Source of the DNA: an uncultured Candidatus Saccharibacteria bacterium
GTDB taxonomy: Bacteria; Patescibacteriota; Minisyncoccia; UBA6257; 1-14-0-10-40-38
Assembly: GCA_964543265.1 (NCBI GenBank)
Contig: CAZIWN010000001.1
Span: 232,977 to 296,976 of the forward strand
DNA length: 64,000 bases
Reading direction: 5' to 3'
Part shown: one piece after another, positions 6,610-55,300 of the stretch
Position numbering within the stretch: the stretch's first letter is position 1
Layout of the letters: the number at the start of each line of letters is the position of its first letter
Notes under the pieces: model-generated
Told to the model about the DNA's origin: nothing
The model's database searches: none
Seen by the model: only the letters and a program-made list of their open reading frames with translations
Program-made: the position numbers and the translations under genes

Positions 6610-6645
6610 AAGCTTGCGAATACTACGAGGAGGAATAACAAAGTA
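6610..6645 (+). repeat. intergenic structured repeat, copy 1 (3' half only, truncated)
   Basis: aagcttgcgaatactacgaggaggaataacaaagta matches the second half of the consensus (..AAGC.ATGCGGATACT.CGAGGAG.AAC.ACGAAGTA). Confidence 0.6.
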
Positions 6646-6672
6646 GATCGCTATTAAAATTGAAAAGCTTTT

Positions 6673-6746
6673 GCGCTCCTAATGGGAATCGAACCCATGT
6701 TTATGCCTTGAGAAGGCAACGTCCTAGGCCACTAGACGATAGGAGC
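6673..6746 (-). tRNA. tRNA-Glu (anticodon CTC)
   Basis: Reverse complement folds as a cloverleaf with acceptor GCTCCTA/TAGGAGC, T-loop TTCGATT and anticodon loop TTCTCAA. Confidence 0.8.
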
Positions 6747-6755
6747 TATAATTAT

Positions 6756-8036
6756 TTACTGCCGAACCAGCTCGTCGACTATCTTATCCATTTTTATACC
6801 TCTCGACCCCTTAATTAAAACCAAATCACCCTCTTTAATCAAGTTTCTTGCCTCTAGGGACGCAGTTTCCGAATCTAGGTACCTCTTTACATTCTTTTTA
6901 TTAAAACCAGCCCCCAAAGCCCCCTCTTCAATAAATCTAGCCTCTTCCCCAACTATAAACAAATAATCAAAGACCTTAGAAGCATAAGAGCCAACTTTTC
7001 TATGAGCTTCCTCGCTAAACCTGCCAAGCTCTAACATGCTTCCCAAAAAACCAATCCTCCTTCCAGACCTATTAATAGACTCTACTCCCTCTATAGCAGA
7101 TAAATAAGAAGCCAATGAAGCATTATAAGAATCATCCATAATTATAGAATTATTAACTCCCCTTAGAATATTCATTCTACTATGCTCCGGAAGAAACACG
7201 TTGAGACCCCTAGTGGCTTCGACTAAATTCATCCCCAAAGACAGTCCGCAAGCAACTGCAACCGCCGAAGCATAAGCCACTGGTTTACCGAATGAATTTC
7301 TTATTCTAACCGGAATAAAACTACCAGCATATTCCAGTTTAAAATTAACTTCTGGTTCACCATTTTCACTTATATTACTTTCATAAGAAGATATTTTTAA
7401 ATCATTATCTTTATTAAATCCAAACAATAAAATTTTAGCTCTGGTTCTCTTTTTTAATTCCTGAGTCCTTACATCATCTCCGTTTAAAATGGCGTACTGA
7501 GAAACATAAAATCCTTCAATTAACTTAGCTTTTTCTCTAAAAACAGCATCTGCGTCCAAATACTTGCCGACATGAGCAGGCGTCTCGCCGATAAAAGTTA
7601 TAACTCCTAAATCGGGGCGTATTTTTGAAACTAATTTTTTTATATCACCCGGACCATCGGCTCCATATTCTAAAACCAAAAAATCTGGATATTTTTTATT
7701 CTTGAAAAGAATATTGAAAATTGCTTCAAAAAATATTTGAAAAAATATCTTAAACTTAAAAAATCCAGAAAAATCCATATCTTCACCGGATTTACTTATA
7801 GCAACTAAGCTATCTGCTTTTAAACTCGAAATTACGGTTATAGGTAAGCCTACTTCATTATTAAAACTGCCAAAACTAGCCCTCACGTTGTATTTCGTGG
7901 ACAAAACAGCCTCGACAGCATTCTTGGCTGAAGTTTTACCAACAGAACCAGTTATTCCTATTACAAACGGTTTATATTTTCTAATAGTTAAACCAGCTAA
8001 AAAAAACAAAATATTGCTTAAAAATCTATTTTTCAC
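6756..8036 (-). CDS. murF: Mur ligase family, most like UDP-MurNAc-tripeptide--D-Ala-D-Ala ligase
   Basis: ATP-binding motif GITGSVGKTS. Mur ligase middle and C-terminal domains. Sits in the dcw cluster next to ftsI. Confidence 0.65.
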   Translation of the reverse strand: MKNRFLSNILFFLAGLTIRKYKPFVIGITGSVGKTSAKNAVEAVLSTKYNVRASFGSFNNEVGLPITVISSLKADSLVAISKSGEDMDFSGFFKFKIFFQIFFEAIFNILFKNKKYPDFLVLEYGADGPGDIKKLVSKIRPDLGVITFIGETPAHVGKYLDADAVFREKAKLIEGFYVSQYAILNGDDVRTQELKKRTRAKILLFGFNKDNDLKISSYESNISENGEPEVNFKLEYAGSFIPVRIRNSFGKPVAYASAVAVACGLSLGMNLVEATRGLNVFLPEHSRMNILRGVNNSIIMDDSYNASLASYLSAIEGVESINRSGRRIGFLGSMLELGRFSEEAHRKVGSYASKVFDYLFIVGEEARFIEEGALGAGFNKKNVKRYLDSETASLEARNLIKEGDLVLIKGSRGIKMDKIVDELVRQ

Positions 8037-8044
8037 TCTATTTC

Positions 8045-13151: not shown

Positions 13152-13180
13152 ATAATCTAAATTAAAGTATAGTAAATATA

Positions 13181-13211
13181 AAAAATCTGTCCAAATTTGG
13201 ACAGATTTTTT
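13181..13211. terminator. bidirectional terminator
   Basis: aaaaaatctgtccaaatttggacagatttttt. Confidence 0.6.
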
Positions 13212-13231
13212 ATATAAGACAGATTTCAATC

Positions 13232-15126: not shown

Positions 15127-15188
15127 ATAATACCAGAAATAATAAAATTTGTAAATAAATTACAAATCTTTCGATTATAAAAGATCAG

Positions 15189-15266
15189 CTACAAGGCGCG
15201 AGTGAGTACCGACTGAGATGTATTGATATAAATACTTCGAAGGAGGAGTGGAGTGAGCAACGCCGT
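15189..15266 (+). repeat. intergenic structured repeat, copy 2 (long subfamily with central palindrome)
   Basis: tacAAGGCGCGAGTGAGTACCGACTGAGATGTATTGATATAAATACTTCGAAGGAGGAG...AACGCCGTA. Flanked by inverted repeat cgattataaaagatcagc / gatgaattttataattg. Confidence 0.75.
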
Positions 15267-15323
15267 AGATGAATTTTATAATTGAAAGTATAAAAAAAAT
15301 GAGACCGATTGGTCTCATTTTTT

Positions 15324-15617
15324 TTACAACCCAGGTTCTACTCTTGGCGCCCTAGTCGATCCTTCTGGTTCGTCTATTTTAAGATTAACTCTTGCGTTGT
15401 GTTTTATTCCCACAATTCTTAAAAGGGATCTAATCGCTTTAGCGGTTGCCCCTTGTCTACCCACAACTTGACCCATATCTTCGGGATGAACTTTTAAAGT
15501 TAAAAGAACCCCCATCTCGTCAACTTTTCTATCGATTTTGACATCATCTGGATGATCAACAATCGCCTTAACTAAACTTTCTAAAAATTCTTGGTCTGCT
15601 ATTCTCATTTTCTTCAA
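15324..15617 (-). CDS. KH-domain RNA-binding protein (YlqC/UPF0109 family)
   Basis: GVLLTLKVHPEDMGQVVGRQGATAKAIRSLL. Conserved position between rpsP and trmD. Confidence 0.8.
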   Translation of the reverse strand: MKKMRIADQEFLESLVKAIVDHPDDVKIDRKVDEMGVLLTLKVHPEDMGQVVGRQGATAKAIRSLLRIVGIKHNARVNLKIDEPEGSTRAPRVEPGL

Positions 15618-16103: not shown

Positions 16104-18290
16104 CTAATCCAGCTTCAAAGATAAGAGTTTTGATGATCCATCCTCCCCCAAAGTAACACCATAAAGAACACTTGCAATCTCCATAGTTGCCCTATTATGA
16201 GTAACAATCAAAAATTGAGTTTTCTTTGAAAAATCCTTAATTAAAGAGCTTAATCTCTTAGTATTTGCCTCATCTAAAGCCGCATCAATTTCATCTAAAA
16301 CTAGAAATGGCGGAGGACTGACAGAAATCAAAGCAAATAATACTGCCAAAGAAACCAAGCTCTTCTCTCCTCCAGATAAAGACTCAAGAGAAGCGACTTT
16401 CTTTTTTGGTAACGAAACAGATATTTCAATACCTCCATGGTCAAATTTCTTCCGTTCCTCAATTTCCACCTCATCAGAATTATTTTTTGGAACAATTTCC
16501 TCTATCTCACCTTCAACAATCTCTTTAATTTCTTTTTTAACCAAGGTTAATTTTGCCGATCCGCCCTGAAACATTAATTTAAAATAATTAGTAAATTCAT
16601 GATTAATTTTAACCATGGCTTCCTTAAATTCTTTATGTATTTTTTCATCCAATTCCTTGATTAAAGAATTTAAATCTGCAAATGCTTTTTCCAAATCCTG
16701 AATTTGAGAAGATAAAAATGAATATCTAGCTTCAGTTTCCTTCGCTTCTTTTAAAAGAGATTCGTCCACCTCTCCAATAGCAGATATTTCCGATCTTAAT
16801 TTAAAAATTTTTCTTTCGGATTCTCTTGCCTCGCTTTCAGAGAATGAGTTAGTTAAACCCTCTTCCGAAACACCAAACTGCTTCATTTCTTTTAAGATTT
16901 CATCTTTAGAAATTAATATTTTTTCCAATTCAAAGGCAAATCTAGATCTAGAACTTAATAATTCTGATATTTCCCTATTTTTATCTTGAACCCTAATAAA
17001 AGACTTTTTAAAATTATCGTTAAATTCTTTGCTAGAATTAGAAATCTCCGCTTCCTCTTTTGAAAGAGATGATATTTCCATTTCTAGTTGCTTAAGATTC
17101 TCAAATAATTCTTTCTTCTTTTTTTCAAATTCTTCTCTTTCTACATTATTTGTAACTTCTGAAGTTTTTTCAGAATCTTCAAAAAAATTATCAATCTTTG
17201 AAATTAAATCTTTCAATGCAGATTTTAATATTTCAAAATCAGATAACTCATATGTCTCTTCTATTTTTTTTCTTACATCCTTAAAAAACACAACCACCTC
17301 TTCGCTATTTACCACCTTTTTATCCTTCTTTTTGGGTAAAAATTCGATTTGCGCCTCAATCTTTCCCAACTCCCTTTCTACATGAGACTTCTTTTCATAA
17401 ATCTGATTTTTCCTTTCTGCGACAGCTCTTCTTTTCTGCTCTTCCTCTTTTTTACTTTCCTTATTACTATCTTCTAAATTTTTTACCTCCTTTTCAAGCA
17501 AACCAAGCTCTTCTTTTCTAGCAGAAATAGCAATATCAATATTTTTTATATCTAGTCCGATTTTTTCTTCCTGTGTCTTATAAACACTTAATTTAGAACC
17601 ATAATAATTCTTTTCTAGATTAACTAGTTCATTCCTATATTCATCGTGCTTTTCCCATTTAGCCGCTTGGCGTCTCAAGACTTTCAAATGAGGCAAGATC
17701 TCTTCGGTCAGAGCTTTTGCCTTATCCATATTTATTCTTGTGCTTTCAAGCTTCAGTTCAGATTCATGTTTTTTTATCTGATAAGTTCTAAGTCCAAGAA
17801 TTTCTTCCAACATTTCTCTTCTCTCTTTTTCGCTGGCCTTTATGAAGATATCACTCTGTCCTTGATTGATGATGGTTAAACCTCTAGCGCCAAGCTTAGA
17901 TTTGGCAAAAAAATCTAAAATCTCTTTAGCTCTAACTTCTGAATCATTTATAAAGTATTTTGATGTTCCGTCTCTATCAATTCTTCTAGAAACAGTCACT
18001 TCCTCATATTCAACAGGAAAAAACTTTGAAGAATTATCGAGTGTCATTGAAGCCTGCGCAAACCCAGCTCTTGGCCTTGTTGGAGTACCAGAAAAAATCA
18101 AATCTTCTGCTTTTCCACCTCTCATATTTTTCGCCTCTCTTTCACCCAAAAGCCAACGGATGGCATCTATCACATTAGATTTTCCAGATCCATTAGGACC
18201 CACAACCGCCAAAACTCCTTCCGGAAAATCCAAAACCGCCTTTTCCGCAAAAGACTTAAATCCCAAAAGTTCCAATTTCTTCAAAAGCAT
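16104..18290 (-). CDS. smc: SMC-family chromosome partition ATPase (short-arm variant, 728 aa)
   Basis: N-terminus LELLGFKSF...GPNGSGKSN (Walker A). Long coiled-coil. C-terminal signature LSGGEKSLVSLAVLFAL and Walker B LDEIDAALD. Confidence 0.65.
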   Translation of the reverse strand: MLLKKLELLGFKSFAEKAVLDFPEGVLAVVGPNGSGKSNVIDAIRWLLGEREAKNMRGGKAEDLIFSGTPTRPRAGFAQASMTLDNSSKFFPVEYEEVTVSRRIDRDGTSKYFINDSEVRAKEILDFFAKSKLGARGLTIINQGQSDIFIKASEKERREMLEEILGLRTYQIKKHESELKLESTRINMDKAKALTEEILPHLKVLRRQAAKWEKHDEYRNELVNLEKNYYGSKLSVYKTQEEKIGLDIKNIDIAISARKEELGLLEKEVKNLEDSNKESKKEEEQKRRAVAERKNQIYEKKSHVERELGKIEAQIEFLPKKKDKKVVNSEEVVVFFKDVRKKIEETYELSDFEILKSALKDLISKIDNFFEDSEKTSEVTNNVEREEFEKKKKELFENLKQLEMEISSLSKEEAEISNSSKEFNDNFKKSFIRVQDKNREISELLSSRSRFAFELEKILISKDEILKEMKQFGVSEEGLTNSFSESEARESERKIFKLRSEISAIGEVDESLLKEAKETEARYSFLSSQIQDLEKAFADLNSLIKELDEKIHKEFKEAMVKINHEFTNYFKLMFQGGSAKLTLVKKEIKEIVEGEIEEIVPKNNSDEVEIEERKKFDHGGIEISVSLPKKKVASLESLSGGEKSLVSLAVLFALISVSPPPFLVLDEIDAALDEANTKRLSSLIKDFSKKTQFLIVTHNRATMEIASVLYGVTLGEDGSSKLLSLKLD

Positions 18291-18408
18291 AAAGTAAAAT
18301 TATAACAGAACCAATAAAAACAATGTATTCAAACCTCTTTAATTTAAATTCTTATATTCAACTAAAAATCGCTAGTGCTAGATAGATATAATTTTCAAAT
18401 TTTATAAA

Positions 18409-18473
18409 TACAAGGCGTTTCGACGAAGTTGTATCAGAGCCATGCGGATACTACGAGAAGAAACAACGAAGTA
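18409..18473 (+). repeat. intergenic structured repeat, copy 3 (short subfamily)
   Basis: tacAAGGCGTTTCGACGAAGTTGTATCAGAGCCATGCGGATACTACGAGAAGAAACAACGAAGTA. Confidence 0.8.
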
Positions 18474-18492
18474 TTTTTCAAAAATCAAAACA

Positions 18493-19176
18493 TTACAAAC
18501 TTAAAAGAGCTTTTTTGGCTGCGTCCACCTCTGCATCTTGCTTAGACTGTCCAGTTCCAGTCGCAATCAATTTTTCCCCAAAGAAAACTCCAGAAGTAAA
18601 AACTCTGGCATGGTCTGGTCCTTCTTCTCCTAAAACTTTATAAACTGGAGTTATTTTATTTTTCTCCTGTATTATTTCCTGTAACTTACTTTTGGCATCA
18701 TATTGCAAACCCTTAGCTAAAATCTCTTCTAAATTATTCATTACAAATTTCTTAATAAAAGCCTTGGCTGGCTTAATTCCCCCATCAAGATAAATTGCTC
18801 CAATAACAGCTTCTGCGCCATTAGCCAAAATAACATCTCTGGCTCTCCCAGAATCTTTTGCTTCTCCTTTAGAAAGCAAAATAAAATCATCTAATTTAAA
18901 ATCTCTGGCAATTTTCGCCATCATTTGAAAATTAACCAAAGCAGATCTTATCGGAGTTAATTTCCCTTCTGGGTGTTGCGGAAACAGTAAAAACAATTCC
19001 TCCGTTGTAATAAGCTCTAAAACAGCATCGCCCAAAAACTCCATTCTTTCGTTTTGGCCATACTGCCACTGCGGATTCTCATTCAAATATGAACGATGAG
19101 TCAGCGCTTCTTTTAGAAAATCCTGATTTTTAAATTTATAATCTATTATTTTTTCAAAACTCTTAAAATTATCCAT
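18493..19176 (-). CDS. rnc: ribonuclease III
   Basis: RNase III signature ERMEFLGDAVLEL. C-terminal dsRBD. Confidence 0.9.
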   Translation of the reverse strand: MDNFKSFEKIIDYKFKNQDFLKEALTHRSYLNENPQWQYGQNERMEFLGDAVLELITTEELFLLFPQHPEGKLTPIRSALVNFQMMAKIARDFKLDDFILLSKGEAKDSGRARDVILANGAEAVIGAIYLDGGIKPAKAFIKKFVMNNLEEILAKGLQYDAKSKLQEIIQEKNKITPVYKVLGEEGPDHARVFTSGVFFGEKLIATGTGQSKQDAEVDAAKKALLSL

Positions 19177-20056: not shown

Positions 20057-20491
20057 ATGGACAGCGCAACCGCACCTCTTTCGACGACCCGTTTCGATCG
20101 GACCGGCTTCCAGTTCGACGTGAATTCCGAGATGCAAGAAAGCGTCTTCGACCTCGTCGAAGGCGCCCTGAATCGTGACGGCGAAGTGCGGGCAGAAGGA
20201 ATGCCCGACGAGATCGCCACGATCTCGGAAGCGCACATCTTCGCGGGCGAAGAAGGTCGAGTTCCGGCCACGCTCGAAGAAGCGATGAGCTTCGTCGAGC
20301 GCAACACGACAATCGCAGGTCACTGCGTGGTCGTAGCAACCGGAACCCAGACCTTCCACGGCGGAGAGTTTTTCGTCTTCGCGATTCGCAAGCACGAACG
20401 CGCAGACAAGACCGGCTTCGTCGTGACGACGATCCCGCTCACGAGCACGTGGGCGCGCCACTACAAGGTGGCGCACCTCTCAGCCACCTGA
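20057..20491 (+). CDS. hypothetical acidic 144-aa protein in a GC-rich (~60% GC) islet
   Basis: Only this frame and strand has a promoter, SD and downstream terminator. The three overlapping minus-strand ORFs are high-GC artefacts. Confidence 0.5.
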   Translation: MDSATAPLSTTRFDRTGFQFDVNSEMQESVFDLVEGALNRDGEVRAEGMPDEIATISEAHIFAGEEGRVPATLEEAMSFVERNTTIAGHCVVVATGTQTFHGGEFFVFAIRKHERADKTGFVVTTIPLTSTWARHYKVAHLSAT

Positions 20492-20504: not shown

Positions 20505-20566
20505 GCCCCGACACTAGAGCCTCTCGCGCACCGCGCGGAGCTCTAGCTGTCGGGGCTTCTTTTTTT
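20505..20566 (+). terminator. long GC-rich compound hairpin plus T-run after the GC-islet ORF
   Basis: gccccgacactagagcctctcgcgcaccgcgcggagctctagctgtcggggc then ttcttttttt. Confidence 0.7.
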
Positions 20567-20655
20567 ACAAAAAAACTTTGTATTTTTCCACTGACTAAAA
20601 TAGAATAAGAGTATTAATCTTAGAAAAATACCAAAATATTAATATTTTTAACAAA

Positions 20656-20718
20656 GACAAGGCGTTTTTGCGAAGCTGTATCAAGCAATGCGGATACAGC
20701 GAGTAAAAAGAACGCAGT
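20656..20718 (+). repeat. intergenic structured repeat, copy 4 (short subfamily), immediately upstream of dnaE
   Basis: gacAAGGCGTTTTTGCGAAGCTGTATCAAGCAATGCGGATACAGCGAGTAAAAAGAACGCAGTA. Its internal ATG is in frame with dnaE and creates a spurious N-terminal extension in the ORF track. Confidence 0.75.
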
Positions 20719-20747
20719 ATTTGTTAGTAAAGATTAATATTAAACCA

Positions 20748-28865: not shown

Positions 28866-28905
28866 TGCCAAGTTACCGCATGCGGTAACTTGGCACTGTT
28901 TTTTT
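28864..28905 (+). terminator. 34-bp perfect palindrome plus T-run (terminator of 28065..28865)
   Basis: agtgccaagttaccgcatgcggtaacttggcact then gttttttt. Confidence 0.75.
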
Positions 28906-35721: not shown

Positions 35722-35799
35722 ATGCAAGGCTTGGGCGAGAAGCGATTGAGGTGTATTAATTTAATACTCCGAAAGAGCATCGAAGACCATAACGAAGCA
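35722..35799 (+). repeat. intergenic structured repeat, copy 7 (long subfamily)
   Basis: atgCAAGGCTTGGGCGAGAAGCGATTGAGGTGTATTAATTTAATACTCCGAAAGAGCATCGAAGACCATAACGAAGCA. 24-bp inverted flanks tttaaattcaaaaacggctagatg / cagatggctgtttttcaatttaaa. Confidence 0.8.
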
Positions 35800-35822
35800 G
35801 ATGGCTGTTTTTCAATTTAAAA

Positions 35823-37585: not shown

Positions 37586-37595
37586 CAAAAATAAA

Positions 37596-37632
37596 AACAA
37601 GACGGCCTCGTGCCGTCTTGTTTTTATTTATT
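37596..37632. terminator. bidirectional terminator (after tRNA-Asp on the plus strand and gatCAB on the minus strand)
   Basis: aaaaacaagacggcctcgtgccgtcttgttttt. Confidence 0.7.
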
Positions 37633-41604: not shown

Positions 41605-41669
41605 TCAAATAATACCAAAAAAACCAGACTTAAACCAAAAAAAACTCATCTCTTTTTTAGATAAATAAG

Positions 41670-41736
41670 TACAAGAAGCGACGACGAAGCTGTATATAAG
41701 CGAAAGCGAATACTGCGAGGAGGAGACGACGAAGTA
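41670..41736 (+). repeat. intergenic structured repeat, copy 8 (short subfamily)
   Basis: tacAAGAAGCGACGACGAAGCTGTATATAAGCGAAAGCGAATACTGCGAGGAGGAGACGACGAAGTA. Perfect ~21-bp inverted flanks tctcttttttagataaataag / attatttatctaaaaagagat. Confidence 0.85.
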
Positions 41737-41745
41737 ATTATTTAT

Positions 41746-42207
41746 CTAAAAAGAGATACTAAAGGCTCTAGCGGCCGACCCAGCTCTTCCGACAGATTTA
41801 ATACAAGTAAGAACATCTGGAGTCGTTCCCTCATCATGAACCGCACCAAAAGGACAGCCAGCATCTTTAGAAATTAAAAGCTCATAAGTCTGATTGTCGG
41901 TTAATTTACCAGTAAAAGAATTATCATATTGATTATTTCCAGACTCCAAACAAACATCAGTAGAGGCGATAAGCGCCTGATCTGGTGCATTTAAATTATT
42001 ACACCTAAAAACCTTAAAAAGACCTCTCTCCAACGCTGCGTCTGCGGAATATATTGCCTTAACGGAATCAACGGCTATATTCGTTTGTCTAGTTTGATTT
42101 AAGGTTAAAACACCAGCAACAGTAGTTGCGACCAAAAATACAGACGCCAAAAACAAAACAGTAACCAACATAACTTGCCCAGAACTATTTTTATTAAAAA
42201 AGTACAT
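41746..42207 (-). CDS. pilus-assembly / minor pilin-like protein (PilX-like N-terminal helix)
   Basis: N-terminal hydrophobic helix MLVTVLFLASVFLVATTVAGVL. Position in the pilin cluster. Confidence 0.4.
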   Translation of the reverse strand: MYFFNKNSSGQVMLVTVLFLASVFLVATTVAGVLTLNQTRQTNIAVDSVKAIYSADAALERGLFKVFRCNNLNAPDQALIASTDVCLESGNNQYDNSFTGKLTDNQTYELLISKDAGCPFGAVHDEGTTPDVLTCIKSVGRAGSAARAFSISF

Positions 42208-44085: not shown

Positions 44086-45045
44086 CTAATTAATCGGAAA
44101 AAGGCTAAAATAAAAATTTAAAATATCAACACCAAAAAACATTACAACCACAGTGGAAAGAACGATAAACGGACCAAACGGCACCAACGTTTTCATCCCT
44201 GCCCTTTTCCCCAACATTAAAATTATACTCCAAAAAGAACCTATTATAAACGAACCCAAAAGAGCCAAAATAATATCTGGCCAACCCAATAAAACACCCA
44301 AAGCTATCGCTAACTTAACATCGCCAAAGCCCATTCCCCTGCCTCTGCTTAAAAAATATATTCCTCCAAATAAAACCAAACCAAAACCCAACCCCAATAC
44401 ACTAGAAATAAAAATTGAATCTCTAAATCCGAACAATGAAGCATAATGACCTAAAAACGAAAATCTATAAAAATCAAATAAAGAATATTTATATTTAATA
44501 AAAGCTAAAATAATCCCAAGGATTAAAATTAATAAATTCGAACTATCGGGTATAATCCGCAGTCTCAAATCAACTAAAGAAATAAAAACCAGAGTTAGTA
44601 AAAATAATATATAAATTCCGCATAAAATATAAAAAACAACAGGCATAGACCCGATAACAAACTTAAATTCATAAACCCTATTAACTAATTTAGGAACAAA
44701 AACAAAGATTAAACCAGAGATAATCTCGATTATTGGATACTGAAAAGATATTTTTTGCTTACAATTACCACACCTCCCCAAAAGGAATAAGAAACTTAAA
44801 ATGGGAATCAAGTTTATCCAAGAAATTTCCTTACCACAACTCATACAATTGCTTCTTCCAGAAATCTTCTTTAAATCAAAAACTTTTCCATCTTCAGAAT
44901 ATCTTAAAGACAAAACATTTAAAAAACTTCCAAACAATGTTCCAAAAACAAAAAGTATAAAATTTATCATAAAAATATTATTTATTTGTTTTGAATTATA
45001 AATGTCAGCTACAAGGCGCGAGTGAACAAAGACTAATATTATCAC
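44086..45045 (-). CDS. pilD: prepilin peptidase (A24 family)
   Basis: N-terminal CxxC..CGNC zinc motif. 6-8 TM helices. Aspartyl peptidase A24 region. Confidence 0.8.
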   Translation of the reverse strand: MIILVFVHSRLVADIYNSKQINNIFMINFILFVFGTLFGSFLNVLSLRYSEDGKVFDLKKISGRSNCMSCGKEISWINLIPILSFLFLLGRCGNCKQKISFQYPIIEIISGLIFVFVPKLVNRVYEFKFVIGSMPVVFYILCGIYILFLLTLVFISLVDLRLRIIPDSSNLLILILGIILAFIKYKYSLFDFYRFSFLGHYASLFGFRDSIFISSVLGLGFGLVLFGGIYFLSRGRGMGFGDVKLAIALGVLLGWPDIILALLGSFIIGSFWSIILMLGKRAGMKTLVPFGPFIVLSTVVVMFFGVDILNFYFSLFPIN

Positions 45046-45058
45046 ACATTAATTAATC
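45010..45058 (+). repeat. intergenic structured repeat, copy 9a (degenerate 5' part of long subfamily)
   Basis: agctacaaggcgcgagtga is identical to the 19-mer in copy 2. The rest has decayed. Confidence 0.55.
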
Positions 45059-45073
45059 TTTATTTGAGATGAG

Positions 45074-45138
45074 TACAAGACGCGACGACGAAAGTGTACA
45101 TAAGCTAAGCGAGTACTCTGAGGAGGAGCAACGCAGTA
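45074..45138 (+). repeat. intergenic structured repeat, copy 9b (short subfamily), tandem to 9a
   Basis: tacAAGACGCGACGACGAAAGTGTACATAAGCTAAGCGAGTACTCTGAGGAGGAGCAACGCAGTA. 12-bp inverted flanks tatttgagatga / tcatctcaaata. Confidence 0.8.
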
Positions 45139-45155
45139 ATCATCTCAAATATAAA

Positions 45156-45749
45156 TTAATTCCCGTAGAAGCATTCTTTGTTACCCATACAATAATAATC
45201 CCCATCGCAATCTATCCCTCCAGGATAAAGATTCTTACAAGACTCAGAAGAGCAAGAAACCGGTGACAATTTAGAAATTATATCTGCATTATCGATATCA
45301 TCACTTAAAAATTTACTATCAGCAGAAATCCTAGCCCTTAAAATATAGCACTGACCTCTCGGTATAGACGTTCCAGAACCAAGCTGCACAAAATAACTAT
45401 AAGTTTCACCCAAGGAAACATCTGGATCGTTTTGTAGCGGCTCCAATCCTATATCTGCTCTTTTTAATATATCAGACAACTCTTGCCAACTTAAAGGATC
45501 TTCACCTGGGTTATTAGGAGTAACAGCTCCACGACACTCAGAAGACACTATACTGCCAGGATAAAAACCGCATTTCAATTTAAAAAGCTCTAAAGATTGA
45601 GCCGCACTCTTCAAATCTGCAACTCTTTGATCATCTTTTGTTTTTTTTCTCACATCCAATAAACTAGGCAAAACAAGGGAAATAATAACGCCGATAACGC
45701 CGATAACTATTAATATTTCAACCAATGTAAAACCCTTTTTATTGAACAC
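45156..45749 (-). CDS. type IV pilin
   Basis: KKGFTLVEILIVIGVIGVIISL prepilin motif. Cys pair near the C-terminus. Confidence 0.7.
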   Translation of the reverse strand: MFNKKGFTLVEILIVIGVIGVIISLVLPSLLDVRKKTKDDQRVADLKSAAQSLELFKLKCGFYPGSIVSSECRGAVTPNNPGEDPLSWQELSDILKRADIGLEPLQNDPDVSLGETYSYFVQLGSGTSIPRGQCYILRARISADSKFLSDDIDNADIISKLSPVSCSSESCKNLYPGGIDCDGDYYCMGNKECFYGN

Positions 45750-46263
45750 CGACGCAATAAATATTATCTACACCTCCATTAATACCACAACTAAAACTAG
45801 TGAAATAACTTGTGAAATTAATATCCCCGTCATCTATATCAGACTTTAAAGCAGAATTATCGGTTTCTAAATGAGCGGTTAAAATATATGCTTGATTAGT
45901 TGTTCCTGGATGATATTCATAATTAGGCACAGAACCAACTTCAAATGGGATTCTAACATTTAACGAGCTCTTTAAAACAGACGACAATAGCGTTCCATCC
46001 GTCCAAGCTCCATCAGAAAAATTACCAGGAGTACATGAAGCACCAGCTCCAGCCGCTCCTCCAGGATAATATCCACATTTATTGTAATAAAGCTCTAGCG
46101 CACTCTGAACCTGCTTCAAATCAGCAATTCTTCTAGCATCACGAGCAGATTGCCTAGCTCCATTTAAACTCACTAAAAGCGCCGAAGCTAAAATACCGAT
46201 AATAGCTATTACTATTAATAATTCCACCAGAGTAAAACCTTTCCTATTTTTAATTTTATTCAT
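45739..46263 (-). CDS. pilA: type IV pilin (candidate major pilin)
   Basis: RKGFTLVELLIVIAIIGILASALL. C-terminal Cys pair. Confidence 0.7.
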   Translation of the reverse strand: MNKIKNRKGFTLVELLIVIAIIGILASALLVSLNGARQSARDARRIADLKQVQSALELYYNKCGYYPGGAAGAGASCTPGNFSDGAWTDGTLLSSVLKSSLNVRIPFEVGSVPNYEYHPGTTNQAYILTAHLETDNSALKSDIDDGDINFTSYFTSFSCGINGGVDNIYCVGVQ

Positions 46264-46303
46264 ATATTTTTAATTCTTCTAATTTGGATTTATAAAGAGC
46301 AGA

Positions 46304-46367
46304 TACGAGACGTTTCGAGGAAGTTGCATCAAGCTATGCGGATACTACGACGAGAAACAACGAAGTA
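46304..46367 (+). repeat. intergenic structured repeat, copy 10 (short subfamily)
   Basis: tacGAGACGTTTCGAGGAAGTTGCATCAAGCTATGCGGATACTACGACGAGAAACAACGAAGTA. Confidence 0.8.
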
Positions 46368-46388
46368 TATGCCTTTATAAATTCAAAT

Positions 46389-47600
46389 TTATCTAATGAC
46401 TTGTATTAAATTATATATCGGAAGTAGTAGCGCCGCAAACATAAACCCAACCATTAAACCCAAAAACACCATTATAACTGGCTGTATTAATTCAGAGATA
46501 TTAGAAACTAAATTATCAACCTCTCTAGAATAGAAGGAATTTACCTTCTGAAACATTTCTTCCAATTTTCCAGTCTGCTCACCCACAGATATCATCTGCG
46601 TCACAATTGGCGGAAAATATTTAGCATAAAGCTGAAATGCTTGGCTTAATTGTTCACCCCTCCTAAGTCTTTCAACAATTTCGTGTATTACCTCTTCGTA
46701 CAACTCACTGCCAACAGTGTGACCAGCAATCTCCAAAGATTGAGTTATAGGAATTCCTCCCTTAATTAAAACGCTAGCCACTTCAGAAAATCTTGCAATG
46801 TATAATTTTCTGAAAAGATTACCAAGTCCAGGAATTGCCAAAACAATTTGATTTAAAATAGCTTTTCCCTCCCTGCTCCTGAAATAATCCAAAACAATAA
46901 TTAAAAATATTATTATAAAAACAATAATTCCAGCCCACCATTCATTAATAAAGTCTCCTAAACTTAGAAATATTCTAGTTATTAAAGGAAGCTCAAAATT
47001 AGCTTCAGTAAAAATAGGTTTTATCTGCGGAAAAACTAAACCAACCAAAACTCCTCCAACTATAAGCGATAAGCTGATTACAAAAACAGGATAAATCATA
47101 GCTGTCCTCACCTTCGAAGATAAAAGAAGCTCTTTTTCTAAATAATTAGCTAAATACTCCATCACCTCCTCTAGCCTTCCGGTAACTTCAGCAGATTGGA
47201 CCAAATTTACATAGAAATCAAAAAATATATTTCCATGTTTTTGTAAGGATTGAGAGAAAGAAAGTCCAGAACTTATATCCTGAGAAATTTCATATAAAGC
47301 CTCCTTTAAAACAGAATTAGTTGTTTGATAATAAAGAGAATTTAAAGAGTCTGTTAGTGATATTTTCGCGCCCAACATCGCGGCAAATTGTCTAGTAAAT
47401 ATCGCTAAATCTTTAGATTTAACCCTTTTCCAAAAAAGAAAAATTTCGTTATACCATTTAGGCTCCGAATATTTATCTATGCTTAAAATAAAAAGATCAT
47501 GAGAAATTAAGACACTAGTCGCAGTATCTTTATCCACAGCCTCAACATTACCCACCTGAAGCTCTCCAGTTTTTGTTCTTGCGCTGTATCTAAATTTCAT
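46389..47600 (-). CDS. pilC: type IV pilus assembly platform protein PilC (GspF family)
   Basis: Duplicated GspF domains. 403 aa. Three TM segments. Confidence 0.85.
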   Translation of the reverse strand: MKFRYSARTKTGELQVGNVEAVDKDTATSVLISHDLFILSIDKYSEPKWYNEIFLFWKRVKSKDLAIFTRQFAAMLGAKISLTDSLNSLYYQTTNSVLKEALYEISQDISSGLSFSQSLQKHGNIFFDFYVNLVQSAEVTGRLEEVMEYLANYLEKELLLSSKVRTAMIYPVFVISLSLIVGGVLVGLVFPQIKPIFTEANFELPLITRIFLSLGDFINEWWAGIIVFIIIFLIIVLDYFRSREGKAILNQIVLAIPGLGNLFRKLYIARFSEVASVLIKGGIPITQSLEIAGHTVGSELYEEVIHEIVERLRRGEQLSQAFQLYAKYFPPIVTQMISVGEQTGKLEEMFQKVNSFYSREVDNLVSNISELIQPVIMVFLGLMVGFMFAALLLPIYNLIQVIR

Positions 47601-48694: not shown

Positions 48695-48790
48695 ATTTGT
48701 TTATTTATAAATTATAACTTATTTAGTAATCCCCTGCGAAGTGTAAAAATATATAAAATCTATTTAAGAAAATTATAAAAATTAAGAAAG

Positions 48791-48855
48791 TGCGCAGAGC
48801 GACGACGAAGTTGCATTAAAGCTGTGCGGATACTGCGAGGAGAAACGACAAAGCA
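48791..48855 (+). repeat. intergenic structured repeat, copy 11 (short subfamily)
   Basis: tgcGCAGAGCGACGACGAAGTTGCATTAAAGCTGTGCGGATACTGCGAGGAGAAACGACAAAGCA. Confidence 0.8.
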
Positions 48856-48875
48856 ATTTCTTCATTTTTATAATT

Positions 48876-50615
48876 TTAAACCACTTCCGTTTCGCTAATT
48901 ACATCCTCTATCGAAACAAGTCCCTGCAAAGCTTTTATAATTCCGTCTTGCCTCAATGAGACCATTCCTTGTCTTTCAGCTTCCTTAGAAATATCATTCT
49001 CTGAAAAATTCTTTCCGGCCAAAATCTGAGACAATTCTTTTGTCATCTCAAAAACTTCAAAAATAGCCACACGACCAACTATTCCCTTATTTTTACAAAC
49101 CTTACAACCATTAGCTTTATACACCTTAAACGGTTCTTTTATCTGAAACTTGCTCTGTATGGAAGATAATTCTTTCTTTATAACATTTAAAATCTCTGGT
49201 GATGGATCGTGCGACGTCTTACAGTTATCGCACAATTTAGAAATCAATCTTTGTCCCGCCATAGCAGAAATCGCGGAAGGTAAAAGATATCCAGAAACAC
49301 CCAAATCTATTAATCTAGGAATAACTCCGACAGCATTATTTGTGTGTAAAGTTGAAAGCAGTATGTGACCAGTTAAAGCAGCATTAACGGCCAAATCTGC
49401 AGTTTCTTTATCGCGAATTTCTCCAACCATTAAAATATCCGGATCTTGTCTTAATATTTCTCTAAGTCCTGACGCAAAGCTATATCCTATCTCTGGCTTA
49501 ATTTGAGATTGATTAATGCCCTCAATCGTATATTCAACAGGATCTTCCAAACTCATAACATTAACATTTTCCTTATTTAAAATTTTCATCAGAGCATACA
49601 AAGTGGTTGTTTTTCCTGATCCAGTTGGACCAGTTAGAAGAACCATACCATAAGCCCTCTCTATAGCCCTTCTTAGAATTTCCGAGCTTTGTCCAACAAT
49701 ACCCAAATCCTCAAGATTTTTTAAGCCAGTAGCGCTATCCAAAACCCTCAAAGCAACCTTTTCGCCATTAGGTGTTGGGAAAGTTGAAACCCTGAAATCT
49801 ATTTCCTTTTCAAAAATCATCGTCCTAAATCTTCCATCTTGGGGAATCCTGGTTTCATCCAGCTTCAAACTAGAAAGAATTTTTACACGAGAAACTATGG
49901 CCTGAGATAATTCTGGAGGAAAAGAAGTGTATTCTTCTAAATTTCCATTTAATCTAAATCTAACCCTAGTCTTTAGTCTTCCCGGCTCTATATGAATATC
50001 AGATGCTTTAGCCCCCACAGCCTCTTTCAAAAGACCAGAAACTATTCTTATTATGGGAGCGCCAATTTCTTTATTTGAAGAACTGGCTTCATCTAGCTTA
50101 ATAATTTTTTGAAACGATTTAAATTCGTCAGCTCCTTTTTCCGATTTTAAAAAACTTAAAGCTTCCTTTATCTCATCCGATATTGGATTATATTTATTAA
50201 TTACCGCATAAACATCAGAAGGAGTAACTATATAAACACCAAGGTTAACCTTTTCTCTTGAAGCTAAAAATTTTAAAGCCTGCTGGGCTTGTGTATCGTC
50301 TGGATTCACCATTCCAACCACAATCATATCCTGAGTTCTACTCATAGGAGTCATCTTAAAACTCCTAGCATTATCAAAAGGAATTAACTTAACTAAATCT
50401 TCTGATATAGAAGCAACATCTATTTTTTTAAAAGGTATTTTTAAGATTCTTGATTTTATCTTAGCAACATCATCTTCGGAAACTAAATTATCAGAATAAA
50501 TAACCTCTTCAGCAGTTTTTTTTACAGAATCAGCCTCTCTTAAAACCCTAGACCCATCTTCTTGTGTTAAAAGACCTTCTGTTACTAAGGCAGAAATTAA
50601 ATCCTGGTTTTTCAT
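48876..50615 (-). CDS. pilB: type IV pilus assembly ATPase PilB (GspE family)
   Basis: N-terminal GspII domain. Walker A GPTGSGKTT. Tetracysteine CDNC...CKVC. 579 aa. Confidence 0.85.
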   Translation of the reverse strand: MKNQDLISALVTEGLLTQEDGSRVLREADSVKKTAEEVIYSDNLVSEDDVAKIKSRILKIPFKKIDVASISEDLVKLIPFDNARSFKMTPMSRTQDMIVVGMVNPDDTQAQQALKFLASREKVNLGVYIVTPSDVYAVINKYNPISDEIKEALSFLKSEKGADEFKSFQKIIKLDEASSSNKEIGAPIIRIVSGLLKEAVGAKASDIHIEPGRLKTRVRFRLNGNLEEYTSFPPELSQAIVSRVKILSSLKLDETRIPQDGRFRTMIFEKEIDFRVSTFPTPNGEKVALRVLDSATGLKNLEDLGIVGQSSEILRRAIERAYGMVLLTGPTGSGKTTTLYALMKILNKENVNVMSLEDPVEYTIEGINQSQIKPEIGYSFASGLREILRQDPDILMVGEIRDKETADLAVNAALTGHILLSTLHTNNAVGVIPRLIDLGVSGYLLPSAISAMAGQRLISKLCDNCKTSHDPSPEILNVIKKELSSIQSKFQIKEPFKVYKANGCKVCKNKGIVGRVAIFEVFEMTKELSQILAGKNFSENDISKEAERQGMVSLRQDGIIKALQGLVSIEDVISETEVV

Positions 50616-52017: not shown

Positions 52018-52061
52018 TTTTTATACAAATTTCTCTACAAAATCTTGAAAGATAAAGTAAT

Positions 52062-52127
52062 TACAAGGAGCTCTGACGAAGCCGTATTAAAGCCAAGCAC
52101 ATACGGCAAGAAAGAATCGATGCAGTA
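52062..52127 (+). repeat. intergenic structured repeat, copy 12 (short subfamily, perfect internal stem gccgtat/atacggc)
   Basis: tacAAGGAGCTCTGACGAAGCCGTATTAAAGCCAAGCACATACGGCAAGAAAGAATCGATGCAGTA. Confidence 0.8.
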
Positions 52128-52148
52128 ATTGGCTAGTTTGCAAATATT

Positions 52149-53222: not shown

Positions 53223-53262
53223 ATTTGATTGTTTGTAATAAAATTGTAACATAAAAAATGAG

Positions 53263-53979
53263 ATGAAAAAAATTCTCATCTGCATAAAAACATTAATCAT
53301 CGATTGTCTTTTTCCCAACATCTGCGGTTTTTGCGAAAAAAATCTAGAAAAAAAGACTGAGATAAACGGTTTATGCGATAATTGTTTTCATAAAATTGAA
53401 ATCTATGATTTTTTCTCTTGCGGGAAATGCTTCGCTCGCTTACCAAATAATAAAAAAATCTGTCACCAGGAATTGAAATATATTTTAGGTAGCGCTTCAA
53501 CTTTTAAAAACGAAATAATTCAAAAATTAATAAAAGGGCTCAAATATGAAAGGCGTCAAAATTTGAGCCTACCAGCATCTCAAATAATTAAATTATTTAT
53601 CCAAAAAACAAACTTTAATTTCAAGGATTATTTAATAATTCCAATACCAATTCATAAATCAAAAGAAAAAATAAGAGGATTTAATCACGCAGAATTAATC
53701 GGAGAGCATCTCTCAAAATCAAACGACCTAAGAATGATAAAAAATTGCCTGATAAAATCAAAAAACACCAAATCCCAAACCGAAACAGAAAATCATGAAG
53801 AAAGATTTAAAAATATAAAAGATAGTTTCTTGATTAAAAATCCCGAATTAATAAAAAACCAAAACATAATCCTACTAGACGATGTCTCAACCAGTGGCGC
53901 AACCCTAAGTGAAGCCAGTGAAATCTTAAAAAAATCCGGAGCCAAAAATATAATTGCCCTAGTCCTAGCAAAAGCATAA
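53263..53979 (+). CDS. comFC: competence protein ComFC (phosphoribosyltransferase-type)
   Basis: N-terminal C4 zinc finger CGFC..CDNC..CGKC. PRTase motif IILLDDVSTSGATL. Confidence 0.8.
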   Translation: MKKILICIKTLIIDCLFPNICGFCEKNLEKKTEINGLCDNCFHKIEIYDFFSCGKCFARLPNNKKICHQELKYILGSASTFKNEIIQKLIKGLKYERRQNLSLPASQIIKLFIQKTNFNFKDYLIIPIPIHKSKEKIRGFNHAELIGEHLSKSNDLRMIKNCLIKSKNTKSQTETENHEERFKNIKDSFLIKNPELIKNQNIILLDDVSTSGATLSEASEILKKSGAKNIIALVLAKA

Positions 53980-54018
53980 AAACCACATAGGATTTATAAT
54001 TTAAATAAATTTAAAAAA

Positions 54019-54094
54019 TACGAGGAGTTTCGACGAAGGTGTATGTAAGCCACGCGAATACTCCGAGGAGAAAACGACAAAGTATTTTTTAAAT
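54019..54094 (+). repeat. intergenic structured repeat, copy 13 (short subfamily)
   Basis: tacGAGGAGTTTCGACGAAGGTGTATGTAAGCCACGCGAATACTCCGAGGAGAAAACGACAAAGTA. Perfect 16-bp inverted flanks aaataaatttaaaaaa / ttttttaaatttattt. Confidence 0.85.
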
Positions 54095-54103
54095 TTATTT
54101 AAA

Positions 54104-55300
54104 TTAATACCCTTCTTGTTTTTCTGCGTCTATAACATATTGCCCAACATCCACAACTTGCGCCTTAGTTACTTTTTTCAAAGATTTTGAAGAAATTCCA
54201 TTACCATCAACATCAACAGTAATCAATCCAGAAACTCCAGACCAATTAGTTAAAGACTTCATCCATTCAGAAATATTTTTTATATTAACTTCTCCCCCAT
54301 GATAATTTGCGGAAAAAGCATCCTTAATCACAAAAAGAGCATCATAAGCATAAAAAGCCATTCCTATCGGATATTCTCCATAAACAGCCTTATATTCTTC
54401 TCTAAAATTTTGAGCTGCTAAATTATTCTTCCAATCTATATCAGTTGATATAGCTAAAGATCCCTCAAACGTTTTTGGATTCTTTGAGATGTTTTCGCTA
54501 TCAAAAATAGAAATTGGCGAAGCAAAATATGCATTAATTCCTTTTTCTCTTATTTTCTTTAAAATTTCAAAGCTATTATCTTTTGAATCCACGGCGACAT
54601 AAACAGCTTCCGGTTTTATAGTCTTAATTTCATCTATAATTTCCTGCGTGTCTTTTGAAAAATCAACCGCAGAATCTAAAACAACTTCACCGTCCGATTC
54701 TGAAAAATATTTTCTAAAACTATCAGATGATGCTTCTCCAAATTTAGTTTTATCGTGAAGTATCGCAGATTTACTAACTTTAAGATCGTTTATAAAATAA
54801 TTTGCCAAAAAAGAACCTTCAAAAAAGTCTGGCGAAGTTACAGAATAAGCAGACTCACCAGCCCCAGATACTCCATAATCAAGACCAGAATAAGAAACCA
54901 TAATTCCGCCATAATTTTTTACAACTCCAGAGATAGAAGCCACCTCTTCCTTGCACGATCCGGCAATTATAATTTTTATTCCCAAATCTATTAATTTTTT
55001 AGCAGACTCTCCGCTTTTTTTAGAATCACAACCTCCATCCTCAAAAACTACGCTTATCTTCCTTCCATCCACGCCTCCGACATCATTAATTTTTTTCTGC
55101 CCAAGCTCCAATGCCCCCTTAACAGCCAAAACTTCAACAGAGTCATTATCCATAGGCAAAATAGCCCCAATCTTTATTTCAGACTGAGAATCGGAAGAAT
55201 AATTAGGAAATATAGCAAAACCACCAATTGCAAAAACGGCTATCAAAAAAACAAAAGTTATAATCCTTATCATTAGCTTAAATAGTATATAATTAAACAA
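54104..55300 (-). CDS. ABC transporter substrate-binding protein, type-1 PBP (Leu/Ile/Val-binding family)
   Basis: Signal/TM anchor. IKIGAILPM..G..A..GA.LA periplasmic binding fold. Confidence 0.65.
   Translation of the reverse strand: MFNYILFKLMIRIITFVFLIAVFAIGGFAIFPNYSSDSQSEIKIGAILPMDNDSVEVLAVKGALELGQKKINDVGGVDGRKISVVFEDGGCDSKKSGESAKKLIDLGIKIIIAGSCKEEVASISGVVKNYGGIMVSYSGLDYGVSGAGESAYSVTSPDFFEGSFLANYFINDLKVSKSAILHDKTKFGEASSDSFRKYFSESDGEVVLDSAVDFSKDTQEIIDEIKTIKPEAVYVAVDSKDNSFEILKKIREKGINAYFASPISIFDSENISKNPKTFEGSLAISTDIDWKNNLAAQNFREEYKAVYGEYPIGMAFYAYDALFVIKDAFSANYHGGEVNIKNISEWMKSLTNWSGVSGLITVDVDGNGISSKSLKKVTKAQVVDVGQYVIDAEKQEGY

Follow-up and report, generated by a model that had tools for sequence, protein, structure and literature searches.

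A question raised by the 64,000-nt stretch of DNA analyzed here (positions 232,977 to 296,976 of contig CAZIWN010000001.1 in assembly GCA_964543265.1; hereafter the window) is what kind of element is represented by a short sequence that recurs between its genes, always in the same orientation. According to its GyrB homologs, the host belongs to Candidatus Pacebacteria/Paceibacterota within the Patescibacteria or candidate phyla radiation (CPR). Based on profile searches, folding, and comparison with related genomes, the sequence is proposed to be a lineage-restricted, proliferating non-coding palindromic repeat family that is nearest in kind to REPINs and miniature inverted-repeat transposable elements (MITEs), an assignment for which the chances of being right and of being wrong are judged to be about equal. 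The high copy number, the empty orthologous sites, the replacement of one subtype by another, the truncated and abutting copies, the duplication of whole hairpins, and the DNA-like spectrum of mismatches together point to a proliferating palindromic element that would act as a folded single strand.

An earlier note on this DNA had listed 13 copies of a conserved 65-80-nt intergenic element. The existence of the family and its location were borne out in several ways. A 16-nt slice of the consensus given in that note, which agrees with the alignment of the copies, matches the window seven times against 0.34 matches expected by chance, and the same loci were recovered independently by a repeat finder. 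An nhmmer profile built on the nine short copies and searched against both strands returned these nine together with a truncated 3′ half (t6; copy names as in Table 1), on the plus strand only, and a second profile for the long forms recovered the three long-form cores. The count itself rises to 14 (nine short, three long, and two truncated copies, or one per 4.6 kb), since the truncated 5′ half of a long copy that adjoins the short copy s45 had not been listed. All 14 copies lie on the plus strand and none on the minus strand in nhmmer and covariance-model searches of both strands, so that the single orientation claimed for every copy held throughout the window. The covariance model, built from the nine short copies, detected no extra copies and no reversed ones in the window and the approximately 217 kb searched in total, and no copies were added by the 2.5 kb that adjoin the window on its left or the 1.9 kb on its right. 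Short-form cores are 59-87% identical to one another (mean 72%), consist of 62-71% purine on the plus strand, and have a G+C content of 47%, compared with 35% for the window. The short-form covariance model recognizes the long forms weakly, with scores of 24, 18, and 15 bits, which indicates that the short and long forms are related.

The repeated unit is larger than the earlier description suggested. The size of 65-80 nt fits the conserved core (65-85 nt), but this core is the apex of a longer hairpin, in which an AT-rich outer stem of approximately 20 bp is present in 10 of the 12 full copies and brings the hairpin to about 110-125 nt; full units measure 107-123 nt. The duplex energy between the left and right 30-nt flanks of the same copy averages −14.8 kcal/mol, compared with −4.6 kcal/mol (standard deviation 2.2) for flanks taken from different copies, and none of 20,000 permutations reached the observed sum. 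The repeat finder likewise placed arms of 17-26 nt with 81-100% complementarity around the cores, and the full hairpins, folded as single-stranded DNA, gave z-scores of −2.4 to −7.5 against dinucleotide shuffles. The arms of the short form are wholly different from copy to copy. In contrast, those of the LB subtype of the long form are conserved, being approximately 75-85% identical across three loci in two genomes (the window and relative B, introduced below), and the whole hairpin was therefore copied as the duplicated unit. The arms of the short copy s46 resemble LB arms, which suggests that cores could be exchangeable within arms. The palindromes of L35 and s54 extend into the final codons of the neighboring gene. 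With long hairpins and maintained pairing of this kind, the element is unlikely to be a plain site in double-stranded DNA.

The core is a rod of covarying helices of 2-8 bp, with invariant purine-purine loops between them on one strand. The short-form core contains 16 consensus pairs, for which 94% of the cells in the alignment are paired, compared with 15-47% when the 3′ partners are slid out of register. Seven pairs are changed on both sides, compared with 2.4 ± 1.0 in shuffles, and the covariation score is 0.286 against 0.118. The long form has 20 pairs, 11 of which show double changes among seven copies from three genomes. Alignment of the copies thus shows predicted pairing to be kept while the sequence drifts. 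A 2 × 2 GA/GA loop on the plus strand is invariant in both forms, with covarying pairs on both of its sides, and a second purine opposition is formed by a C[GAA]G / C[GA]G loop. The short core reads in the order CRAGGAG-N4-6-(G)ACGAAG, a small hairpin, and CGAGGAG-N5-6-ACGAAG, so that the loop pair CRAGGAG // ACGAAG is present twice, inverted, around a pseudo-two-fold axis. An asymmetric loop pair repeated around such an axis is the arrangement that would be expected of a site bound by a dimer. The invariance of the purine loops amid covarying surroundings favors a module for specific recognition over a passive palindrome. A K-turn, a sarcin-ricin motif, and a d(GCGAAGC) mini-hairpin were tried by eye only as readings of these loops and were set aside, as their registers gave no clean fit.

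The plus strand folds better than the minus strand in 10 of the 12 cores as RNA and in all 10 full hairpins as single-stranded DNA, in the latter case by 1.0-6.1 kcal/mol. Wobble pairs gave no signal for assignment of a strand. Eight of the arm mismatches would be G·U pairs on the plus strand, 10 would be so on the minus strand, and 29 are of the transversion type; in the cores, the would-be G·U pairs number seven on either strand, which brings the balance for arms and cores to about 15 against 17. The absence of a wobble preference gives the spectrum of a randomly mutated DNA palindrome, not that of an RNA stem selected on one strand. Promoter and terminator scans ruled out a canonical promoter or an intrinsic (rho-independent) terminator, in accordance with the earlier view that the element is neither a promoter nor a standard terminator. 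Promoter-like sites occur at the background level (65 against 57.5 ± 6.3), and none of the 20 terminator-like sites found between 40 and 56 kb coincides with an element. Canonical bidirectional intrinsic terminators, which consist of an A-tract, a short GC stem, and a T-tract in perfect or near-perfect palindromes of 16-25 bp, are present at seven other positions (Table 1), mostly at convergent gene pairs and operon ends; they stand apart from the elements and clearly do not belong to the repeat family.

Protein anchors were used to sample three relatives: relative A (GCA_009694925.1; 93% identity in GyrB and 89% in SMC; loci L016 and L030), relative B (contigs k141_208653 and k141_155705 of ENA ERZ27280317; 89% in PilB and 93% in SMC; loci L023 and L029), and relative C (contig k141_263378; 84% in GyrB and 73% in PilB; loci L017 and L025). 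Relative A contains no copy in 21.9 kb and is empty at the sites of L15, s18, s20, L31, s32, and L35, where its spacers are as short as 40-48 nt and lack a palindrome; the s18 site is an empty gap of 40 nt. The gyrB-secE spacer that holds s32 in the window measures 29-48 nt in relatives A and C and at a further locus, L020 (74% in GyrB). Relative C contains one copy in approximately 37 kb, an ortholog of L31 at L017 13005-13091, and the arms of the two orthologs differ at about 9 of 21 positions yet pair over 21-24 bp in both. The unit s48 is absent as a whole from relatives B and C, which have gaps of 39 and 26 nt, respectively. At the s54 site, relative C has a gap of 4 nt, and relative B carries a gene of the bAvd / 23S-rRNA-IVP family (L023 6325-6687 and L024 4751-5113) between the binding-protein gene and comF; bAvd proteins are accessory proteins of diversity-generating retroelements.

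Relative B also retains copies. Its ortholog of s20 is 92.5% identical to the window copy, arms included, next to a spacer that is 95% identical, and five of the seven substitutions between them are related to pairing: a C-G pair is replaced by U-A in the apical helix, and changes between G·G and A-T and between G·U and G-C leave an 8-bp helix perfect in relative B. Other sites have changed their content. The s18 site of relative B holds a long-form copy and an LA-type fragment (L029 8970-10000), with clpP inserted on the opposite strand between rnc and smc, a position at which the window and relative A have no gene. Intact LB long forms occupy the s46 site (L023 14299-14389) and the pilin2-pilD site of t45 and s45 (L023 15540-15625), the L15 site retains a solo arm only, and the s52 site a decayed remnant. 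At the s41 site, both arms are joined as a plain hairpin of approximately 19 bp that lacks a core and is followed by a T-run, as s41 in the window is followed by T8. Insertion into pre-existing palindromes was considered as a general rule and rejected, because most empty sites in the relatives contain no palindrome; it is possible for s41. The pilT-pilC spacer of relative B (L023 12893-13071) is 179 nt long, compared with 20 nt in the window, and contains two AT-rich hairpins, each with a perfect 14-bp stem and a 5-nt loop, that lack a conserved core and could be core-less relatives of the element or ordinary hairpins. Taken together, the alignments show that copies have been inserted, deleted, truncated, and swapped for another subtype at the same intergenic sites between genomes that are approximately 90% identical in protein. 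A strand-biased mobile element, one of the options raised in the earlier note, fits this gain, loss, replacement, and truncation between close relatives. At s48, two independent assemblies of the same species match the window exactly, as one of them also does at s52.

L35 lies in an insertion of approximately 1.1 kb (34649-35822) between pheS and the conserved gyrB promoter, which is absent from relatives A and C. This insertion contains a 30-nt inverted repeat (35498-35587) and an open reading frame (ORF) of 200 aa on the minus strand (34825-35427) with a Trp-rich C-terminus, and a near-direct repeat, TAGGTAGTTTT / TAGGTGGTTTT, is found at its two ends.

Placement of the copies follows gene ends. 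Eleven copies lie between two minus-strand genes (in 10 spacers, one of which holds two copies), two lie in convergent spacers, and one, s20, lies between plus-strand genes. The earlier note had stated that the flanking genes may be on either strand or converge; all three contexts do occur, but the minus-strand context prevails and s20 is the only plus-strand case. Among the spacers of at least 60 nt, 13 of 32 are occupied, namely 10 of 21 between minus-strand genes, two of three convergent, one of two between plus-strand genes, and none of six divergent, the last with a hypergeometric probability of about 0.03. In 9 of the 12 full copies, the plus-strand 3′ edge of the hairpin is 0-3 nt from a gene boundary or overlaps it. 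The adjacent boundary is mostly a minus-strand stop codon (rnc, nusG, gyrB, pheS, ORF 41746, pilin, pilC, pilB, and the binding-protein gene), and in s20 it is the dnaE start codon. The copy s20 is sense to both of its neighbors, whereas every other copy is antisense to its co-directional genes. That the orientation is independent of gene direction, as had been claimed, is therefore upheld by s20, which keeps the common orientation against the direction of its genes, but by this single copy, for which the ortholog in relative B is not an independent case. Minus-strand genes account for 57 of the approximately 75 genes of the window. Throughout the window the GC skew is negative, with values near 0 along plus-strand genes and near −0.3 along minus-strand genes, and a skew of one sign indicates that the window lies on one replichore. 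With such a majority of minus-strand genes and a uniformly negative skew, the directions of transcription and replication are inseparable within the window, save at s20.

The insertion of s20 separates dnaE from its ancestral ribosome-binding site, GAGGA, which is located 7 nt upstream of the ATG in relative A; neither the window nor relative B has a Shine-Dalgarno motif in the sequence that immediately precedes the dnaE ATG (…TTAAACCAATG). The gene on the other side of s20, ORF 20057-20491, encodes 144 aa on the plus strand with 61% G+C in a genome of 35% G+C, has a TTGACA-type promoter and a GC-rich intrinsic terminator at about 20505-20570, and is also present in relatives A and B; it looks horizontally acquired. 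The genes that flank the copies are housekeeping genes of a reduced genome, including rnc, nusB, nusG, secE, rplK, gyrB, dnaE, thrS, ligA, and gatCAB, together with mraZ-mraW-ftsI-murE, ribosomal protein genes, a 728-aa SMC, a fused mitochondrial-type phenylalanyl-tRNA synthetase (PheRS), and a type IV pilus cluster.

Table 1. Positions of the repeat copies (t, truncated; L, long; s, short), of canonical intrinsic terminators, and of other features of the window.
Feature	Positions	Strand	Description	Context
t6	6607-6648	+	Truncated short form, 3′ half only; nhmmer model positions 30-72, E = 4e-5	Terminator of a plus-strand gene on one side, tRNA-Glu (minus) 3′ end on the other
L15	15168-15288	+	Long form LB (CTAC-AAGGCG...ACGCC-GTAG); core 15188-15270 and arms	Canonical terminator after a KH-domain gene on one side, trmD start on the other
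s18	18385-18496	+	Short form; core 18408-18476, imperfect arms	Adjoins the rnc stop codon (18493-18495)
s20	20635-20741	+	Short form; core 20655-20722 and arms	Past the terminator of plus-strand ORF 20057-20491; 3 nt ahead of the dnaE ATG (about 20745)
L31	31388-31509	+	Long form LA (TGC-AAGGCTTGG...ACGAAG-CA); core 31409-31492 and arms	3 nt past the nusG stop, upstream of the rplK promoter
s32	32479-32588	+	Short form; core 32500-32567 and arms (GTTTCGCG...CGCGAAAC)	2 nt past the gyrB stop, upstream of the secE promoter
L35	35700-35822	+	Long form LA; core 35722-35803 and arms	Begins at the pheS stop; palindrome reaches into the last pheS codons
s41	41648-41757	+	Short form; core 41669-41740 and arms	Upstream of ligA; arms overlap the stop and last codons of ORF 41746-42207
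t45	44989-45040	+	Truncated LB long form; left arm and 5′ half of core	Adjoins s45
s45	45051-45161	+	Short form; core 45073-45140 and arms	Overlaps the stop codon of pilin gene 45156-45749
s46	46281-46389	+	Short form; core 46302-46370 and LB-like arms	Adjoins the pilC stop
s48	48769-48877	+	Short form; core 48790-48858 and arms	2-nt overlap with the pilB stop codon
s52	52061-52131	+	Short-form core, no convincing arms	17 nt past the pilM stop
s54	53997-54106	+	Short form; core 54018-54087 and perfect 25-bp arms	Convergent comF-like (plus) and binding-protein (minus) genes; covers the binding-protein stop codon
Terminator	3167-3200		Canonical, bidirectional
Terminator	13176-13215		Canonical, bidirectional
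Terminator	15291-15326		Canonical, bidirectional	Beside L15
Terminator	28856-28905		Canonical, bidirectional
Terminator	30816-30856		Canonical, bidirectional
Terminator	37589-37629		Canonical, bidirectional
Terminator	57300-57339		Canonical, bidirectional
SMC	16104-18290		728 aa
PheRS	35823-37118		Single 431-aa protein
Endonuclease	60051-61145		GmrSD-N/HNH	Defense island 60051-63489
TIR protein	61157-61876		ThsB-like	Defense island
145-aa ORF	61881-62318		Matches phrog_19896	Defense island
Methyltransferase	62320-63489		EcoRI-type, adenine	Defense island

In a possible mechanism for the proliferation of the family, the element would act as a folded single strand, most likely of single-stranded DNA, the asymmetric pseudo-two-fold core of which may be recognized by a dimeric trans-acting protein, probably transposase- or nuclease-like, that would copy or move the element. 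The uniform orientation could arise if only one of the strands, as defined by the replication fork, takes part in the process, as is the case with IS200/IS605 elements and the REP-associated tyrosine transposases (RAYTs), or if the reverse orientation is selected against within transcription units. Copies would then survive only in harmless positions, which lie immediately past a stop codon and before the following promoter and exclude divergent promoter spacers. Several observations weigh against a proliferating repeat. The window and the sampled loci of the relatives contain no transposase, no RAYT, and no other candidate for a partner gene, and the ORFs beside copies (34825-35427, 41746-42207, and 20057-20491) have no match in Pfam, NCBIfam, or PHROG. 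Comparison of filled and empty sites at gyrB-secE, pheS-gyrB, pilB-pilT, the spacer upstream of ligA, and the dnaE leader defined neither a target-site duplication nor a conserved terminal inverted repeat; at the s41 junctions, a TTA or TACTT is inseparable from the conserved TAC/GTA helix. The short-form arms are specific to each copy, which is the opposite of REPINs and MITEs. No transposition intermediate and no insertion polymorphism within the population were seen, the latter among the same-species assemblies described above, and the compensatory changes within orthologous copies could reflect a function at the level of the host. The evidence base comprises approximately 170 kb from four related genomes. 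By analogy with REP sequences, host-level roles such as an mRNA 3′-end hairpin, a plus-strand small RNA, or a replication-oriented signal may coexist with mobility.

Each of these roles was also weighed as an explanation in its own right. The copies could be host RNA elements at the mRNA 3′ ends of minus-strand genes, where they would terminate transcription in an unconventional way, block 3′ exonucleases, or be processed by RNase III, and would have spread because they are useful. Eleven of the 14 copies are indeed downstream of one minus-strand gene and upstream of the next, t6 and s54 are downstream of the minus-strand gene in convergent spacers, the hairpin is 0-3 nt from a stop codon or overlaps it in 8 of the 12 full copies, none of the six divergent spacers is occupied, and pairing is kept in orthologs; the AT-rich hairpin and T-run at the s41 site of relative B, with the T8 after s41 itself, are in line with such a role as well. 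However, s20 stands in the opposite sense inside the dnaE leader, and relative A lacks all six orthologous copies, with very short spacers in their place, which means that the same genes do without the element. Ordinary bidirectional intrinsic terminators serve elsewhere in the genome, one of them right beside L15, and the terminator scan flags no element. Furthermore, the stem mismatches are not biased toward G·U on the mRNA strand, this strand folds less well than its complement, and elements occur inside pilus operons that are tight in the relatives. This explanation is accordingly regarded as unlikely. There is still less to recommend plus-strand small RNA genes, antisense to their neighbors, in which a purine-rich rod with tandem G·A pairs would present two GGA/GGAG loops to a dimeric RNA-binding protein as a sponge or scaffold. 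Such genes would suit the better folding of the purine strand (10 of 10 as DNA and 10 of 12 as RNA), the invariant GA/GA loops with covarying flanking pairs, and the pseudo-two-fold repetition of the loop pair, and the 5′ end, GUACAAGGA, appears to resemble the CsrA SELEX (systematic evolution of ligands by exponential enrichment) consensus, RUACARGGAUGU, so that a CsrA-like protein would presumably be a possible binder. No csrA gene is present in the window. The plus strand has neither a conserved upstream promoter nor a downstream terminator, promoter-like matches being at background, and it shows no wobble preference; the arms reach into neighboring coding sequence, no RNA family matches, and the rapid loss, truncation, and replacement of copies are at odds with 14 separately needed genes. 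Small RNA genes are thus considered very unlikely.

A further alternative is a replication-oriented chromosomal DNA signal without mobility of its own, such as a hairpin for priming or primosome assembly, a polar fork or segregation signal, or a supercoil-absorbing cruciform at gene ends. All 14 copies share one orientation under a GC skew of one sign, s20 keeps it against the local gene direction, the mismatch spectrum looks DNA-level, and the AT-rich arms would favor extrusion. A core replication signal would nevertheless be conserved, whereas the copies number zero in the 21.9 kb of relative A and one in the approximately 37 kb of syntenic DNA of relative C. The occurrence of truncated and nested copies, and an irregular spacing in which placement follows gene ends and not chromosomal distance, likewise leave such a signal with little chance of being the explanation. 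Passive palindrome dynamics are just as improbable. Here, AT-rich terminator-like hairpins would gain the core by gene conversion or template switching without a dedicated enzyme, and the arms would stay paired by correction within the palindrome, not by selection. The arms-only hairpin at the s41 site in relative B, the different core subtypes within similar arms at the pilC-pilin site, the random mismatch spectrum, and the extension of the palindrome into coding ends are all in line with such dynamics. On the other hand, whole units including arms occupy sites (s20, s32, s48, s54, and L35) at which relatives have neither a copy nor a palindrome, the non-palindromic purine loops are invariant although correction would erase them, and the uniform orientation is left unexplained.

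The proposed proliferating repeat can be compared with several known systems. In REPINs, an extragenic hairpin of approximately 100 nt is the replicative unit, compensatory changes are common, and many copies are present per genome; singlets and fragments occur as decay products, the families are lineage-restricted and vertically inherited, and a single-stranded DNA mechanism has been proposed (PMC3116915). The element described here is similarly an extragenic long hairpin with compensatory changes, many copies, fragments, and a restricted lineage. In contrast to REPINs, in which the ends are conserved and the spacer is free, its center is conserved and the short-form ends are copy-specific, with conserved arms in LB only. 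It also differs in its single orientation, the invariant purine-purine loops in the core, and its CPR host, and no RAYT (Y1 HUH transposase) gene was found among the window ORFs scanned or the called genes of the related loci. In the IS200/IS605 family (IS608), restriction to one strand and targeting of the lagging-strand template produce an orientation bias, and excision is precise (PMC5027513). The likeness to this family and to palindrome-associated transposable elements (PATEs) lies in mismatched hairpins that here, too, would be recognized on one strand, and a single-strand mechanism of the IS200/IS605 type could account for the uniform orientation as well as for the hairpin of arms alone at the s41 site. 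However, IS200/IS605 elements have separate left and right subterminal hairpins and insert 3′ of a fixed tetra- or pentanucleotide, whereas the element here is a single long hairpin with no demonstrable target motif: on the minus strand, TTAC or ATAC precedes eight of the nine short copies, and that TAC is part of the basal helix. The TnpA gene was not found in the window or in the sampled loci of the relatives.

Bacterial MITEs and the Correia/NEMIS, ERIC, RUP, and BOX elements are intergenic, hairpin-forming sequences of approximately 100-150 nt that are often co-transcribed and polymorphic in presence and absence. The defining features of MITEs are conserved terminal inverted repeats and target-site duplications, and MITEs occur in both orientations. 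In the present family, by contrast, the arms differ between short copies, no insertion sequence is found in the available sequence, and the orientation is uniform. The attC sites of integrons are imperfect palindromes of 57-141 nt that follow directly after ORFs in one orientation and are recognized as a folded single strand through asymmetric unpaired bases; they conserve the outer R and L boxes, vary in the center, and form cassette arrays beside the integrase. The pattern of conservation is reversed here, and the neighbors are dispersed housekeeping genes (gyrB, nusG, pheS, rnc, and pilus genes). The mobile GC clusters of yeast mitochondria are short, relatively GC-rich palindromic modules that differ between strains and are scattered over AT-rich intergenic DNA in a reduced genome, but they are unrelated in sequence, host, and size, and to our knowledge no mechanism is common to them and the element. 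With its inverted pattern of conservation, no definable terminal repeats or target duplications, and no transposase in the available sequence, the family fits neither REPINs, nor IS200/IS605, nor MITEs. A more far-reaching proposal is that it represents a new class of strand-specific CPR element acting on single strands, in which the apex core would be the recognition module for a dimeric enzyme and, oriented one way with respect to the fork, would insert into the apex of hairpins at gene ends or be swapped there, by a mechanism of transposition or conversion distinct from REPIN/RAYT, IS200/IS605, and MITEs; the host may even have co-opted the element as a polar signal along the whole chromosome. 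This proposal is regarded as quite unlikely.

The distribution of the family was surveyed with degenerate patterns, of which that for the short form matches seven of the nine short copies and would be expected to match about twice by chance in 1.2e12 positions. It gave five singletons in 185,579 species genomes, 10 in JGI metagenomes, and none in IMG/VR, and both long-form patterns gave no matches in the viral contigs of IMG/VR. The 15 short-form singletons lie in unrelated DNA of 40-64% G+C (13 of them above 50%), have no second copy, and do not score like a real copy. As only chance singletons were obtained, the short form is confined to this species and relative B. A search of Rfam with the whole window returned six tRNAs only at the gathering threshold, and permissive searches of 31380-32600 and 44980-46400 gave chance matches only, the best on an element being GlsR7 with 22 bits against 75 required. 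Together with the pattern scans, these searches uphold the uniqueness of the family proposed in the earlier note. The literature searched on Patescibacteria and Parcubacteria describes no such interspersed repeat family. Judged from sequence comparison, the family would be a new lineage-restricted interspersed palindromic repeat in a CPR genome, of a kind known from other bacteria but with no description in Rfam or the literature searched.

Several other features of the window are of interest in themselves. A defense island near its right end encodes a GmrSD-N/HNH endonuclease, a ThsB-like TIR protein, a 145-aa ORF product, and an EcoRI-type adenine methyltransferase (Table 1). PheRS matches the mitochondrial-type pheS model and carries a C-terminal FDX-ACB/PheT-like domain, which indicates a fused, probably monomeric enzyme; its counterparts in the relatives have 398-413 aa. 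The SMC protein is short compared with the model of approximately 1180 aa, and both halves of the head match. All SMC homologs found in Paceibacteria have 700-750 aa, and the short coiled coil is therefore a feature of the lineage.

In practical terms, such repeats can break up assemblies of short reads, although here no contig was seen to break at a copy, and they are usable as strain-level markers. The element combines a conserved asymmetric apex, free arms, and one orientation, an architecture for which no described mechanism provides a match. Few known genomes are as small and as densely packed as those of the CPR/Patescibacteria. If the family is mobile, it would represent an active non-autonomous element in a lineage that is thought to be under strong genome reduction.

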